The notes under the pieces were generated by a model that was not told the DNA's origin, ran no database searches, and saw only the letters and a list, made by a program, of their open reading frames with translations. Below, one piece after another: positions 34,854 to 45,768 of a stretch of DNA of 64,000 nt. Where the stretch lies: the NCBI GenBank assembly GCA_963796275.1, contig CAWCKY010000001.1:768001-832000 (forward strand), in the 5' to 3' direction. Every line of letters starts with the position of its first letter. The first letter of the stretch is position 1. The position numbers and the translations under genes are program-made. This DNA comes from an uncultured Acidobacteriota bacterium. Its GTDB lineage: Bacteria > Acidobacteriota > Blastocatellia > RBC074.

Positions 34854-34926
34854 TGAGGGCGGAAGGGCTCGAACCTTCGACCCAGAGATTAAGAGTCTCT
34901 TGCTCTACCAACTGAGCTACGCCCCC
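34854..34926 (-). tRNA. tRNA-Lys(CTT), CCA not encoded
   Basis: GGGGGCGTAGCTCAGTTGGTAGAGCAAGAGACT-CTT-AATCTCTGGGTCGAAGGTTCGAGCCCTTCCGCCCTCA; canonical cloverleaf. Confidence 0.97.
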
Positions 34927-40597: not shown

Positions 40598-41719
40598 ATG
40601 TCACAACAATCACTAAGGGCGACTGGCGAAGGAACGGCGAGATATAAAGACCGCTTTTCCGGTATTCTTGCTGACGGCCATTTCCGCAAGTCGCAAGGTT
40701 TATGGCACTCGTCCATCGGACTCGGCACTTATCTCGGCGGAACGGACGAGCGAACGGATGAGGCCTATCGCGCGGCGACCAAACGGGCTACCGAGTTGGG
40801 GTGCAATGTTTTTGACTCGGCGGCCAATTACCGCTGCCAGCGCAGCGAGCGCAATGTTGGTGATGCGCTCCTCGATCTCTTCTCACTGGGGAAGTTCACG
40901 CGCGATGAGGTGATCGTCGCTTCCAAGGCAGGGTTCATCGCCTTCGACACGGACCCACCGCGCAGCAGACAGGAGATGATCGATTATCTGGAAAAAACAT
41001 TCATAAACCCGGGCATCTGCCGATGGGATGACTTCGTCGACGGGAGTCATTGTATGACGCCGCCTTACCTCGCGCATGAGCTTGAACAGAGTCTGCGAAA
41101 CCTCAAGCTAGACTGTATCGATATTTATTATCTCCATAACCCTGAATCGCAACTTGCCCGGGTTCCGCGCGGAGAGTTTTACCAGAGATTAGGCCGCGCC
41201 TTCGAATTCCTGGAGACAGCGGTCGAAGCGGGAAAAATCGCAAGTTATGGGACGGCGACATGGAATGGATACCGAATATCGCCCGATAAATCAGATTACC
41301 TATCCTTGGAGGCGGTGGTAGGTGTAGCTCGTGAGGTGGCTGGCGATAGGCATCACTTCAAGGTAATTCAGCTGCCGGTCAATATAATGATGCTTGAAGC
41401 GTTCACGGACGTTAACCAGCCATTGGCTGGTAGGAACTATGCTTTTCTGGAAGCGGCCGCCGATCTTGGCATAACAGTCATGTCGAGCGCTTCAATTCTT
41501 CAATCCCGGTTGGCCTCTGGTCTGGACCCGATCATCAGGGATGGCTTGCCAGGGTTCAGGACGGATGCACAGATGGCCATTCAATTCACGCGATCGACGC
41601 CCGAACTGACGACGGCTCTGATCGGAATGAGTAACGTGTTACACGTCGAGGAAAACCTGGAGGTCGCAAAGACGCCTCCATTGACACCAGAGGATTATCT
41701 GAAGTTTTTCAAAGTGTAA
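40598..41719 (+). CDS. Aldo/keto reductase
   Basis: IGLGTY, FDSAANY, SLRNLKLDCIDIYYLHNP. Confidence 0.9.
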   Translation: MSQQSLRATGEGTARYKDRFSGILADGHFRKSQGLWHSSIGLGTYLGGTDERTDEAYRAATKRATELGCNVFDSAANYRCQRSERNVGDALLDLFSLGKFTRDEVIVASKAGFIAFDTDPPRSRQEMIDYLEKTFINPGICRWDDFVDGSHCMTPPYLAHELEQSLRNLKLDCIDIYYLHNPESQLARVPRGEFYQRLGRAFEFLETAVEAGKIASYGTATWNGYRISPDKSDYLSLEAVVGVAREVAGDRHHFKVIQLPVNIMMLEAFTDVNQPLAGRNYAFLEAAADLGITVMSSASILQSRLASGLDPIIRDGLPGFRTDAQMAIQFTRSTPELTTALIGMSNVLHVEENLEVAKTPPLTPEDYLKFFKV

Positions 41720-41722
41720 CTA

Positions 41723-42952
41723 TCAGGGTTGCGGCCGGCCGTTATCGGCTTGCACCCGGATATAACTTAGCAGCAGGCTTAAGTTACTGAAGCGAGCGAA
41801 GAGAATCTCTCTATCTTTTCCGTTCAGGTTAAACACTATCGCCACATTCCTCAGTATCTCCGCCCCGGCGACCAGATTCTCGGGCGTAAAGGTACTCCTC
41901 ACTGCCGCCAGATCATTTTCCGCTTCCAGGCGCGCTGCCTTCGATCGGATTTCAGAAAGGCTCGGACGCAGTAAGCCCTGTGGATCGCTGACTGCCCGAG
42001 TATAGAAATCATCGATATCTTTGGCGGTGATCGGGACGAGTGGCTGGCGGTCCTGAGGATAAAGCAACGTCACCATCGCCCATACTATTCCGCCATTGAG
42101 ATAAACTTTTTTCCGGTTAATCAGGCCGGGCCTCTTTTCCAGTTCACGTTGCAGAGGCTCGCGAACAGACTTACCGCTCAATATTTGTGCTTGACTGGCG
42201 AATTTCTTGATATCAGCACCTGCACCTGCCTCTTTTTCTACTTCATCCGAGAAACCGATCGTCCCCTGAGGAATTCCGAATGTGAAGAACACATTTTCGG
42301 GTTTGCCTTTCGGTAGAATTCGAATCTGCTGATAGCCGCCTTTGATATTACCGCTGCCGACATCTACCAACACTGACATTCCCCGGTTATCGAACCAAGT
42401 CGCTCTGTCTTGATAACGCCGGGGGATCGTGCCAGCGATACTGAGGCTCGCTTCAGACTGCATGTCGAGTAAAGCTACATTCTTACCGGTTTTATTAGTT
42501 ATCGTTTTTGTAAGTTCTCCGGTGTTGTCCGCGATGAGATCGCTGCAAATGATAATATAAATCTGCTCTCTGAGAATTTGATGCTCTTGTTGCATCCGCT
42601 TGTAGAGCGTATCTACTAACTGAGAGATGTTGATGATAGCTTCATCGGTCAAATTCCCATCTTTGTATTGAGCCAGCTTGTTATTTATTACTTCAGTGGA
42701 GATTATTTTTACTCTACCGCTGGATTCGGAAATCTGGATAGCAATAGATTTAATACTTTTAGATCCTATCTCAATTCCGCCATGCAACTCACTTCGATTA
42801 TTTTGTTTCCGGTTAAGTGGGTGTCCTTTAGTAGTGAGTAGTAGATTGAGGCTCAGTGTTCCTATAGAAAGAGTAACAAAAAAAATAATGTGCAACTTCA
42901 GGGTCAGGAGATATGAAAACCGCTCTCTTAACCCAGTAACCCCTACGAGCAT
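41723..42952 (-). CDS. Membrane-anchored Ppx/GppA-like (ASKHA fold) hypothetical protein
   Basis: N-terminal TM; GGIEIGSKSIK and LVDVGSGNIKGG resemble the two ASKHA phosphate loops; AGGAG SD. Confidence 0.6.
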   Translation of the reverse strand: MLVGVTGLRERFSYLLTLKLHIIFFVTLSIGTLSLNLLLTTKGHPLNRKQNNRSELHGGIEIGSKSIKSIAIQISESSGRVKIISTEVINNKLAQYKDGNLTDEAIINISQLVDTLYKRMQQEHQILREQIYIIICSDLIADNTGELTKTITNKTGKNVALLDMQSEASLSIAGTIPRRYQDRATWFDNRGMSVLVDVGSGNIKGGYQQIRILPKGKPENVFFTFGIPQGTIGFSDEVEKEAGAGADIKKFASQAQILSGKSVREPLQRELEKRPGLINRKKVYLNGGIVWAMVTLLYPQDRQPLVPITAKDIDDFYTRAVSDPQGLLRPSLSEIRSKAARLEAENDLAAVRSTFTPENLVAGAEILRNVAIVFNLNGKDREILFARFSNLSLLLSYIRVQADNGRPQP

Positions 42953-43116
42953 CTCACAATTCTCCTTTTTAGCTTACGACCGGCATGCTCAAAGTGGGCG
43001 TCGTTGTTGAATATTTATGAGGGCATCCGTGTTTCTAAGTCTTTATCTACGACTAATACTACAGCAGCCTGATCCGGGACGCAAGATATTCAATAATCGC
43101 TTCAAAAACTTTTATA

Positions 43117-43145
43117 TTGACTGTGTTTCTTGCTCGTGTTAAATT
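43117..43145 (+). promoter_or_regulatory. sigma70 promoter with extended -10
   Basis: TTGACT (43117-22), 17 bp spacer with TG at 43137-38, TAAATT (43140-45); AT-rich tract upstream. Confidence 0.7.
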
Positions 43146-43210
43146 CAAAATTCTCGTTGAATAAGACGAGAGGAATGTGTGAGCAGCTAAAAAGCAACTA
43201 AAAAAAAGTT

Positions 43211-43324
43211 ATGGTAATCATTGGTAGATACAATTATATGAATGATCTCCAATTCGCACAGGATCCGCGCACGCGGGTCTGGATGGGTGCAGGATACCGG
43301 AAGAGATTACTTGTCTACCCTTAG
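43211..43324 (+). CDS. Putative attenuator leader peptide MVIIGRYNYMNDLQFAQDPRTRVWMGAGYRKRLLVYP*
   Basis: 37-codon ORF between promoter and terminator; its codons 28-30 (GGATACCGG) are the antiterminator strand. SD is weak. Confidence 0.5.
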   Translation: MVIIGRYNYMNDLQFAQDPRTRVWMGAGYRKRLLVYP

Positions 43325-43347
43325 ATAATCTCCAAATCGGGTTAAAT

Positions 43348-43397
43348 AAACCCCGGCCGGTATCCAAAATAGGAATACCGGCCGGGGTTTTAGTTTT
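43348..43397 (+). terminator. Intrinsic terminator / attenuator
   Basis: Perfect 13-bp stem CCCCGGCCGGTAT (43351-63) / ATACCGGCCGGGG (43375-87) followed by TTTTAGTTTT. Confidence 0.85.
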
Positions 43398-43415
43398 CAG
43401 GTATCAGGGTATCGG

Positions 43416-43494
43416 GACGATGAAGCCAAAGCAATCGAGGCACGGCGAATAACAAATATAGCCGTAGTAGCTGGTGAGAGACCAGTCATCGTAT
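43416..43494 (+). ncRNA. Non-canonical tRNA-like element
   Basis: Acceptor ACGATG/CATCGT, D stem GCC/GGC, anticodon stem ACGGC/GCCGT with 14-nt loop, 4-nt variable region, T stem GCTGG/CCAGT with 7-nt loop TGAGAGA. Confidence 0.6.
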
Positions 43495-43504
43495 AACACC
43501 ACTT

Positions 43505-43647
43505 TCAGGATGCGTTGCCGTAGACTCGGCTGACATAGTTACACTAAAGCTGTTCCGGATGTGAAGGTACCGGTTTAGGTAGTTTCACATGGTGGCATTA
43601 GTGTGACCGTCGGTAGAATCCGTCAAGGCTCACTGGCGATGCCCTGA
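43505..43647 (+). ncRNA. Candidate rod-shaped structured RNA 1
   Basis: Nested helices TCAGG/CCTGA, GCGTTGCC/GGCGATGC, GTTACACTAA/TTAGTGTGAC, ATGTGAA/TTCACAT, TACC/GGTA. Confidence 0.55.
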
Positions 43648-43650
43648 GCG

Positions 43651-43713
43651 AATGTAGGGCAGGGTTTTATCCTGCCCTGTGAAGGGAAAGGCATTTAGAA
43701 ACTGCCCTACATT
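43651..43713. repeat. GTAG-type REP doublet
   Basis: AATGTAGGGCAG...CTGCCCTACATT terminal inverted repeat; internal GGGCAGG-GTTTTAT-CCTGCCC hairpin. Confidence 0.65.
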
Positions 43714-43746
43714 ATTGACATTCAGGTTCGAAACTTAAGTAAAATA

Positions 43747-43901
43747 TTTTCACAGGTCAGCCCGCGAAATGGGCGGAGGCATCTAGCACTGGGTATGCTC
43801 GTGATATAGCTTGGAGCCCATGAATATGGGCGACAAAGTTTGGGTAATGACAAGGGCTAAATCTCACCGCCCACTCCGTGGGCTGATATGGTTTGTGAAA
43901 A
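43747..43901 (+). ncRNA. Candidate rod-shaped structured RNA 2
   Basis: Nested helices TTTTCACA/TGTGAAAA, TCAGCCCGCG/CGTGGGCTGA, TGGGCGG/CCGCCCA, TAGC/GCTA and inner hairpin GCCCAT-GAAT-ATGGGC. Confidence 0.55.
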
Positions 43902-44285
43902 GCTGATTATCCGAAGATCAACAATGCTCACATCGCATGTGTGTACACCGACATCGGGCTAAGGAGCTGAATATAAGAAAGCGTCGGCAAGAAAGAGCTC
44001 ATAGTGCACCGTAGTATAACTTTGTAGGTATTTTTTTGTTATCGTCGAGGGTGCGCGGCGCATTCGAGAAGTGTGCATATGACAGTCGATTTTTATATGA
44101 AAGAATGACGGTTCGAAGAAGACCGGGAATATCGCGCAGCCATAGCACAACCTACCCAAATTAAAGCTGAGAAAATCAGTACCGCGAGCGGTGGCGAGCG
44201 TAGTTTCCAGAACTCAGAATATTCCAGAAACTAAGCTCGTTTCGTATGTTAAAGGTTTTACGATGACCGCTATGCCATACCCGAT

Positions 44286-45768
44286 TCACCATCCCAGCAC
44301 ACGATTTCCCGGGTCATTCCACCTGCTCAAGATCACTTTGTTATGCGTATAGAAGAGGAATCCTTCGGTGCCTTGAATATGCAGGTCGCCGAAGAATGAT
44401 TGATTCCAGCCGGTGAATGGAAAGATCGCCATTGGCGCGGGGACGCCTACATTCACACCAATCATCCCGCATTTGACATAACGGGCGAATGTGCGAGCCG
44501 AGCCACCGTCGCGCGTAAAGATTACGGCGCCGTTTCCGTAGGGCGAAGCGTTCGCGCGCGCGATCGCCTCGTGGATATCCGCGACGCGCATCACTGAAAG
44601 GACCGGTCCGAAAATTTCATCGGACGCAATGTGCATCTCCGATTCCACGCGATCAAAAATCGTCGGCCCCACAAAGAAACCTTCGCTGGATTGGGTCAAA
44701 GACGTGTTGCGGCCGTCAGTTGCCAGCCTTGCCCCTTCGTTCAACCCGGTATCGATATAGTTGCGGACCCGATCTCGGGCGGCGGGATCTATCACTGGTC
44801 CCATATCGACTGCGCCGCCATCATCGGTCGGTCCAACGCGCATCTTCCGCGCCGCGGCATCGAGGCTTTCGATCAATGCATCTCCCGCCTTGCCGACTGC
44901 GACGGCGACGCTGCCAGCCATGCAACGTTGCCCGCTGCATCCGAACGCCGCGCCTATGATCTGACTCGTCGCGGCATCCAGATACCGCATCAGGCATAAC
45001 CAGCATATAATTCTTCGCACCGCCGGCGGCCTGTACGCGCTTACCGTGCGCCGTCCCGGTTTCATAAATATATTTTGCTACCCCGGTCGAGCCGACGAAA
45101 CTGACGGCCGCAACATCGGGATGGGTGAGCAGGGCATCGACCGTTTCGCTGCCGCCATTCACAACGTTGAAGACGCCCTTTGGTAAGCCGGCGTCGGTGA
45201 GCAGTTCCGCCATCCGTAATGGGGTCAGCGGGACTTTCGGCGACGGTTTGAGGATGAAGGTGTTTCCGCAGACGATGGCGATAGGGAACATCCAAAGCGG
45301 GACCATGGCGGGAAAATTGAACGGCGTGATGCCCACGCAGACTCCCAATGGATGGCGCTGTACTTGTCCGTCGATTCCGCGCGCTATGTTGTCGAGAGTC
45401 TGTCCCATGAGTATAGACGGAGCGCTGCAGGCCAGTTCGACCATTTCTATTCCGCGCCGCACGTCTCCACGCGCTTCTTCGAGGGTCTTGCCGTGTTCGC
45501 GCGTGACCATGCGTGCTAGGGAATCGAAGTTTTCTTCGAGCAAGTGCGCGAAACGAAACATAATGCGCGCTCGCTCTACAACTGGCGTATCAGCCCAGGC
45601 TGAAAAAGCATTTTTGGCGGTTTGGACTGCTCGATCGACGGTTTGAGGGTCGCTGTCTGGGGTCTGCGCGATTACCTCTCCCCTGGATGGATTGTAGACT
45701 GGTGTGTAATGCGATGATGTGGCGGGTGTCAGATCGCCGCCGATGTAGTTGTGGCATATAGTGTTCAT
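44286..45768 (-). CDS. mmsA: CoA-acylating (methyl)malonate-semialdehyde dehydrogenase, split by a frameshift
   Basis: ITPFNFPAMVPLWM, SFVGST, GGAKN in one frame; GCSGQRCMA, EIFGPV, GVNVGVPAP in the other. Deleting base 44984 restores DADLDAA. Confidence 0.88.

Follow-up and report, generated by a model that had tools for sequence, protein, structure and literature searches.

We describe here a 1.33-kb region that lacks a credible gene in the genome of an uncultured Acidobacteriota bacterium of the class Blastocatellia. The region lies in a 64-kb stretch of contig CAWCKY010000001.1 (hereafter the window, in whose coordinates all positions are given), between a 409-amino-acid (aa) open reading frame (ORF) on the minus strand (41723-42952) and a convergent mmsA-like aldehyde dehydrogenase gene, also on the minus strand (44286-45768). 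A preliminary description of the locus proposed that a leader-peptide attenuator situated here controls non-coding RNAs (ncRNAs) rather than a protein gene. From comparison with related genomes, we consider it likely that this genome (G000) has lost an operon of which the region was the 5′ leader, and that what is left is a ribosome-sensing attenuator of the bmrB type, now orphaned.

Results

The plus strand of the region carries a predicted sigma-70-type promoter with an extended -10 element (43117-43145; TTGACT-17-TGtTAAATT, with the -35 at 43117-43122, the TG at 43137-43138 and the -10, TAAATT, at 43140-43145). It is followed by a hairpin with a CTCGTT motif close to the 5′ end of the leader transcript (43152-43171; identified by sequence, fold and recurrence in relatives), and then by a leader ORF of 37 codons (43211-43324; MVIIGRYNY...GYRKRLLVYP) that ends with a TAG stop codon at 43322-43324. 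Within the ORF, GGATACCGG (43292-43300) is exactly complementary to CCGGTATCC (43357-43365), and GAGATTA (43303-43309) and TAATCTC (43326-43332) are nested inside this pairing. The corresponding RNA would form an antiterminator three-way junction (43292-43365) from helices P1 (43292-43300/43357-43365), P2 (43303-43309/43326-43332) and P3 (43339-43343/43349-43353). This junction overlaps a predicted intrinsic terminator (43351-43397), in which a 13-bp stem (43351-43363/43375-43387) is followed by TTTTAGTTTT, the U-tract at 43388-43397; RNAfold gave a free energy of -34.6 kcal/mol and a z-score of -7.8. A simple consensus scan overlooked the terminator because of the scan's loop-size limit. Next comes a predicted cloverleaf RNA with a four-way junction (43417-43492), whose own stems are P1 (43417-43422/43487-43492), P2 (43425-43427/43439-43441), P3 (43442-43446/43461-43465) and P4 (43470-43475/43481-43486). 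We refer to positions 43292-43397, from GGATACCGG through the U-tract, as element A, and to the cloverleaf as element B (43415-43495 in profile searches). The promoter, ORF, terminator and complementary pairings are all found where the preliminary description had placed them, its tRNA-like element corresponds to the cloverleaf, and the two rod-like RNAs that it reported farther downstream are also present. As it had further stated, no credible plus-strand gene precedes mmsA: from 43398 to that gene there is no plus-strand ORF longer than 42 aa.

We searched related genomes for the conserved part of the region. A 207-nucleotide (nt) query found a match in 38 of 87 genomes of the family, as a rule at one locus per genome. 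In what follows, counts out of 30 refer to 29 loci fetched from related genomes plus the window, and counts out of 29 to the relatives alone. Using nhmmer profiles, we found A and B together on the same strand, with A first, at all 29 fetched loci as well as in the window, separated by 10-136 nt. At four of these loci the gap is too short to hold a promoter (10 nt in L006 and L007, 19 nt in the window and 27 nt in L002); hence, B would be made there by read-through of the terminator. Downstream of B, the relatives carry a gene for a protein of about 150 aa, which we call p150 (23 of 29 loci), and a gene for a transporter of the major facilitator superfamily (MFS; 26 of 29), with one or the other present at 27. 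Of the remaining two loci, L025 ends 213 nt past B, and L026 has neither p150 nor MFS within 1.5 kb. Where the raiA RNA described below is absent, p150 begins 40-250 nt from B or is separated from it by an unrelated insert of ~780 nt. In this insert (L020, L023 and L024), a strong ribosome-binding site (RBS), AAGGAGG, precedes a small ORF that encodes two CxxC pairs.

The transporter of the relatives belongs to the Pfam family MFS_3 and is DHA3-like; the NCBIfam models nearest to the full-length protein are TIGR00900, Mef(A), EntS and Tet(V), all of which score under their cut-offs. p150 matches no Pfam or NCBIfam family. An AlphaFold model of p150 (predicted local distance difference test score, 84.7) is all-helical and has no fold match in the PDB at E ≤ 0.001. 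We confirmed 579 sequence stretches as relatives of p150, under titles that include Blastocatellales, Blastocatellia, Pyrinomonadaceae, Acidobacteria and many (filamentous) cyanobacteria; invariant W, H and C residues and a GYHE motif characterize the protein. Among the best 80 p150 loci (L054-L133), 12 have A and B, and an MFS gene adjoins p150 at these same 12 only.

Comparison with G001, a genome of the same genus, indicates what has happened in G000. The gene order in G001 is an upstream gene, an aldo/keto reductase (AKR) gene, a leader ORF of 79 codons, A, B, p150, MFS and a convergent, intact mmsA (493 aa), after which come the same genes as in the window. The window differs in three respects. 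First, the extra 409-aa minus-strand ORF stands between the promoter and the AKR gene (40598-41719, plus strand), a gene that relatives conserve next to the leader, on its upstream side. Second, p150 and MFS are gone. Third, mmsA, the conserved downstream boundary, is split by one extra base near 44984. A tblastn search of G000, which is 94.7% complete, detected no p150 and only two MFS paralogues, 29-31% identical. As far as can be told, the junction after B does not stem from misassembly: one DNA contig, ~95% alike and from a separate soil-metagenome study, spans 43355-43577 and so covers the terminator, B and the sequence beyond, and a contig with 100% identity, possibly from the source sample (run X1 may be that sample), spans 43494-43732. 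Over 43276-43577, DNA contigs of metagenome run X3 are ~95% alike, with stems kept and differences clustered in loops, namely those of P2, P3, the terminator and the variable hairpin of B (43447-43460). The proposal that the attenuator evolved to control ncRNAs instead of a protein gene is not supported by this comparison, since p150 and/or MFS_3 genes are found in 27 of 29 relatives, G001 is collinear with the window and G000 has no p150. Judged by synteny, the gene-less downstream side is an accident of gene loss in G000 and not an evolved design.

We then considered the individual parts of the predicted attenuator. Taken by itself, the promoter-like site of the window is at chance level (5 sites, against a mean of 4.5 in shuffled sequence). 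An equivalent site, TTGACn-N16-18-(TG)-TAnAnT, was found 61-144 nt 5′ of the leader ATG in 24 of 30 loci, and in most relatives a CTCGTT-like motif and a hairpin, judged by eye, come immediately 3′ of the -10. We defined the leader frame as the one that reads the TAC of GGATACCGG (43295-43297 in the window) as Tyr. This frame is open for at least 31 codons upstream of the TAC in all 30 loci (median 72); the other two frames are open for at least 28 codons in just 7 and 4 loci. The position of the stop codon is similarly constrained, lying in every locus 7-13 codons past the TAC and 25-32 nt (median 28) ahead of the terminator. The stop falls in the loop or on the 3′ side of P2, and in the loop in the window, with the 5′ strand of P1 8-10 codons ahead of it. 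Counted from a recurrent start that resembles M-N-x-x-Y-x-x-N, the leader peptides are 37-85 aa long (median 65), and that of the window is the shortest of the 30. Together, the conserved frame and stop codon indicate that the predicted leader ORF is real.

It is conceivable that this ORF is instead a genuine small-protein or exported-peptide gene, encoding for example a precursor that p150 handles and the MFS protein pumps out, in which case the hairpin, instead of being a ribosome-sensing switch, would terminate leakily and thereby fix how much peptide is made relative to the downstream products. We calculated the ratio of non-synonymous to synonymous substitution rates (dN/dS) by the Nei-Gojobori method for 16 close pairs, leaving out the last 11 codons; one pair was saturated, and the other 15 gave values of 0.11-0.90. 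Within one genus the values are 0.11-0.32, as would suit a functional peptide, and the conserved length, the recurrent N-terminal motif and the exporter gene downstream point the same way. Values of 0.7-0.9 were reached in other pairs, however, and the peptides are barely alignable between genera. Moreover, a plain terminator needs neither a covarying upstream partner for its 5′ arm nor a fixed distance from the stop codon, and p150 homologues elsewhere occur without a peptide leader and without MFS. We therefore regard a peptide gene as unlikely.

Comparative evidence for the RNA structures was obtained from alignments of the loci. P1 is paired in 94.4% of cells in a MAFFT alignment of 30 sequences and in 93.9% in a model-fitted alignment of 33 sequences. 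Compensatory changes were found at two P1 pairs overall: one A-U pair is G-C in three to four sequences, in which the 3′ arm of the terminator is altered as well, and a second A-U pair is replaced by G-C or U-A. All seven pairs of P2 are changed on both sides (69-75% paired). P3 is weakly kept (60-66% paired), and we hold it as tentative. For the 13 terminator pairs, 91.5% of cells are paired in the MAFFT alignment and four pairs are changed on both sides; slid controls gave 24-58%. The plus-strand T-tract is conserved across relatives, and the minus-strand T-tract is not. The preliminary description had allowed that its reading would fall if the antiterminator and terminator pairings were not conserved in homologues, and both proved to be kept. 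Hence, the elements of the region appear conserved and covarying in relatives to a degree that is more than chance.

RNAfold predictions, made with and without constraints, are consistent with two alternative states. For the nascent RNA of the window up to position 43372, the minimum free energy structure consists of exactly P1, P2 and P3 (-28.3 kcal/mol). The full leader favours the terminator (-45.7 kcal/mol, versus -33.1 kcal/mol with P1 forced). The comparative evidence thus supports the geometry of a ribosome-dependent attenuator that had been proposed for the window: the leader frame, antiterminator and terminator are found in all 30 loci and the promoter in 24, the short leader ORF is predicted to be translated, the antiterminator shares a strand with the terminator, and the spacing from the end of the ORF is fixed. 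Downstream structural genes, which such attenuators control, are absent from the window and are represented in the relatives by p150 and/or MFS.

We also considered whether the P1-P2-P3 junction might be a riboswitch-like switch that binds a ligand or protein, with the ORF incidental. The junction is a three-way junction that overlaps the terminator, as such a switch might be. However, few unpaired bases are conserved in the loops and junctions of A, which vary, and the sequence 5′ of GGATACCGG cannot be aligned between genera; these properties favour the ribosome as the sensor over an aptamer that binds a ligand. In addition, the ORF and the position of its stop codon are kept in 30 of 30 loci, and the leader matches no Rfam family. 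We consider a riboswitch-like junction very improbable.

Element B has a predicted cloverleaf layout that recurs in nearly every genome: a closing stem, a 3-bp GCC/GGC stem, a variable hairpin, an AGUAG joint and a 5-bp stem. The fold of the window copy has a z-score of -3.75. The loop of the first arm is 11 nt long and rich in invariant bases (AAAG.A.UCGA), and that of the last arm is UGAGAGU in most relatives and UGAGAGA in the window. In 38 distinct sequences aligned to a covariance model (R1), 91.3% of cells are paired and 12 of 19 pairs are changed on both sides; this alignment is fitted to the model, which favours pairing, and a MAFFT alignment gave 78%. In controls, only 3 of 500 shuffles reached as much, and slid alignments gave 21-56%. 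Model R1 found B in 26 of 38 sampled genomes of the family and, as a weak match, in 1 of 112 genomes of other families in the class. We rejected a minus-strand reading of this part of the locus, either as a small ORF (43502-43404) or as a small RNA ending at the hairpin, because only the plus-strand T-tract is conserved and because the covarying helices define B on the plus strand.

The shape of B recalls tRNA and tRNA-like processing elements: as in these, a stem closes a structure of three hairpins, of which the middle one varies and the last bears a 7-nt loop. t-elements and mascRNA are examples of such processing elements. Unlike tRNA, B shows no conservation of CCA or of an anticodon-like sequence, and it is matched neither by ARAGORN nor by the Rfam tRNA model RF00005 (E ≤ 10) nor by any other Rfam family. 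Across the window, ARAGORN found a single tRNA, a tRNA-Lys at 34854-34926, which is also the only match to Rfam at gathering score; the Rfam scan that had been proposed for the locus accordingly assigned neither the leader nor B to a family at that threshold. In E-value mode, Rfam returned NsiR1, PrrF, CRISPR-DR37 and others, all of which we rejected as sub-threshold matches driven by the terminator. By its sequence and predicted fold, B is an undescribed tRNA-shaped RNA. As in a riboswitch, a conserved, structured aptamer-like RNA with invariant unpaired bases stands in a 5′ untranslated region (UTR), and does so in two UTR contexts; judged by eye, no consistent terminator or RBS-masking helix lies 3′ of B. 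B probably adds another level of control in cis, for instance as a binding site for a protein or ligand or as a handle for processing. In three genomes (L146/G099, L147/G094 and L148/G096) we observed a second copy of B without A, 4-39 nt 5′ of a gene for a 405-413-aa signal-peptide protein with a BP74_N domain. The occurrence of B apart from the attenuator suggests that it is a portable 5′-UTR module.

In part of the family, B is followed by a known structured RNA. raiA (RF03072), scoring above or near the Rfam cut-off, begins 22-26 nt past B in five of the first seven loci and in two of 15 further ones, giving 7 of 29 loci. At this distance it could be transcribed only through the attenuator. 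Counted by genome, raiA follows B in nine (L002, L005-L008, L031, L036, L046 and L047). Within the family as a whole, raiA occurs in 28 of 87 genomes, in 26 of them above the cut-off, and in eight fetched loci from three other genera none of A, B and p150 accompanies it. Relatives without raiA keep just a hairpin that, by eye, resembles the outer stem of raiA. The raiA covariance model has no match in the window or elsewhere in G000, even at E ≤ 10. We considered a raiA remnant 3′ of B in the window and rejected it: besides the lack of a model match, the rod in this position is unlike the outer stem of raiA. The main texts of two published accounts place raiA/ModT in Bacillota and Actinomycetota, with its own promoter and no expression platform (PMC10861870, PMC11706538); 'Acidobacteria' occurs 0 times in these main texts, and Dataset S1 of PMC10861870 might list other phyla. 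In contrast to the own promoter described in the portions of those accounts that deal with it, the raiA copies behind B in this family would need read-through of the attenuator.

The remaining sequence downstream of B in the window is of a different kind. Three predicted rods or hairpins (43512-43630, 43651-43713 and 43753-43890) have fold z-scores of -3.7 to -5.1. We compared the 1.33-kb region by BLAST with 41 related genomes and with G000 itself and obtained three unrelated classes of match (43292-43492, 43711-43925 and 44170-44240). The first, which comprises A and B, is kept at 71-85% in other genera of the family. Homology to the relatives then stops: positions 43496-43710, which hold the rod 43512-43630, the hairpin 43651-43713 and a terminator-like site with a T-run (43640-43661), match nothing else in G000 or among the relatives searched. 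Positions 43711-43925, a nested dispersed repeat that carries the rod 43753-43890, recur in segments at about eight other loci in G000 with 70-97% identity. At two of those loci the left and right parts of this repeat adjoin each other; here they are split by another repeat unit, and the whole folds as a long rod (z-score -5.1). The third class is a palindrome resembling repetitive extragenic palindromic sequences (44170-44240), for which BLAST gave 69 hits in G000, most of them arranged as inverted pairs, and which also occurs in several genomes of the family. Of the ncRNAs that the preliminary description had seen downstream, then, the cloverleaf alone is conserved; on this evidence, the rods consist of repeats dispersed in the genome or of sequence unique to it. 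None of the searches bore out the resemblance to trn arrays or Rtc/Y-RNA loci that it had drawn.

These comparisons bear on whether, in G000, the attenuator gates a stand-alone ncRNA (B with or without the rods) under translation stress, with the leader RNA or peptide perhaps acting in trans. Such a role would fit a promoter, A and B that are fully intact and score highly although both flanks have been rebuilt; in other genomes B is also found away from the attenuator, and so is able to work as a module, and the terminator-like site at 43640-43661 could end the RNA. There is precedent in Sinorhizobium, where the published accounts of rnTrpL and peTrpL, in the parts concerned, describe an attenuator-derived RNA and peptide with roles in trans (PMC7968998, PMC7298713). 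Nevertheless, the cargo across the family is protein-coding, the rods are conserved nowhere else, and a recent deletion explains the intact state equally well. We judge a stand-alone ncRNA in G000 to be improbable.

Two neighbouring features were also examined. The mmsA-like gene of the window lies in two frames, as opposed to the intact gene of G001, and may be a pseudogene or the product of an assembly error. The 409-aa minus-strand ORF has no Pfam family, and only a faint exopolyphosphatase-like match was found (E = 0.0018).

Discussion

Our preferred reading is that the region is the leader of a lost operon, an orphaned ribosome-sensing attenuator. The family layout is a promoter, a leader ORF of ~65 codons, the terminator, B, raiA in some lineages, and then p150 and an MFS_3 exporter; the last ~10 leader codons overlap the 5′ strand of P1 and the nested P2, in which the stop codon lies. 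In this reading, a ribosome that followed RNA polymerase closely would reach the end of the leader and melt P1 and P2, allowing the stabler terminator to form, and transcription would stop at ~43397. If leader translation were slowed or blocked, by inhibitors or starvation, the P1-P2-P3 junction would form first and sequester the 5′ arm of the terminator, resulting in read-through into B and the genes. In G000, the stretch 3′ of B has been deleted, with unique sequence and repeats in its place, and a gene has been inserted upstream as well. Read-through would then yield only an orphan RNA, consisting of B and a rod and perhaps ending at the terminator-like site near 43661.

Several observations weigh against this reading. 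The terminator is ~12 kcal/mol stabler than the antiterminator state; therefore, read-through needs a kinetic trap. Similarly, a ribosome parked at the stop codon covers ~43310-43340 and not the 5′ strand of P1, so the decision must be kinetic. The Shine-Dalgarno sequences before the leader ATGs, including that of the window, are weak or missing. The promoter, A and B of the window show no decay, although both flanks have been remodelled: A scores 106 bits, among the top three of 33 sequences, and the score of B, 74.7 bits, falls among those of the family (66-89.5). Their state fits a very recent deletion and a retained function equally. Lastly, the sole contig from an RNA library (metatranscriptome run X2; 200 nt with 0-1 mismatches, spanning 43057-43248) begins 5′ of the predicted transcription start and may derive from DNA. 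We rejected this contig as evidence of expression, as it shows neither ends nor strand, and we likewise read nothing into the parts that lack cover.

The closest known system is bmrB-bmrCD of Bacillus subtilis. As set out in parts of the published account, its leader is 53 codons long and the terminator is more stable than the antiterminator; experiments showed that transcription terminates when translation is unimpeded and continues into the genes of a drug exporter when drugs that target the ribosome are present (PMC4191407). Set beside that partial account, the family described here shares a long leader ORF (37-85 codons), a weaker antiterminator and, in relatives, a drug-type exporter downstream, and the proposed logic would be the same, with efficient translation giving termination and slowed translation giving read-through. 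There are also differences from what those parts describe: the bmrB terminator lies inside the ORF, whereas here the leader stop codon is 25-32 nt ahead of the terminator; the bmrB cargo is an ATP-binding cassette transporter, whereas here it is an MFS_3/DHA3-like pump and p150, lost in the window; and here a cloverleaf follows the terminator. The likeness is one of architecture, sequence homology having been neither sought nor found, and our family is known from sequence alone.

In a more general way, the trp, his and pheA attenuators share a promoter, a leader ORF, mutually exclusive antiterminator and terminator structures, and ribosome position as the signal (see also the discussion in PMC4191407). 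The present family is not of the trp/his type: the 30 leader peptides contain no conserved run of any single amino acid, no anti-antiterminator was identified in the leader, and the downstream genes are not biosynthetic. Leader peptides also control macrolide efflux and protection genes, as in mef(E)/mel attenuation. The macrolide resistance gene msrD is likewise under leader-peptide control, according to parts of a published account (PMC10314930). With these leaders the family has in common a leader peptide 5′ of an efflux-type gene, and the MFS proteins of the relatives are weakly, at sub-threshold level, similar to Mef(A). An R/K-x-R/K motif is present in 27 of 30 leader C-termini, but we discarded it as a macrolide-type +x+ arrest motif, since it coincides with bases fixed by P1/P2 pairing and since arrest of the ribosome there would favour termination, the opposite of induction.

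A more speculative proposal concerns B. It might represent a new tRNA-shaped class of RNA that is restricted to a single Blastocatellia-type family and made only on read-through of the attenuator. By being recognized or processed, for example by RNase P or a tRNA-binding factor, it would release or tune what follows, including raiA/ModT in nine genomes; in G000, the switch and B would survive as a self-standing ncRNA gated by translation stress. We think this combination possible, though rather unlikely.

The seemingly gene-less attenuator of G000 can be explained by synteny, as a locus whose cargo was deleted, and it cautions against over-reading such loci as ncRNA operons. In the relatives, a well-conserved leader-peptide attenuator appears to stand 5′ of an exporter gene in a little-studied soil phylum, with a design like that of the antibiotic-sensing leaders of Firmicutes. 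The cloverleaf RNA, supported by covariation and previously undescribed, is new. Finally, the position of raiA/ModT, an abundant RNA, behind a predicted translation-sensing switch in some genomes suggests a testable link between raiA and translation stress.

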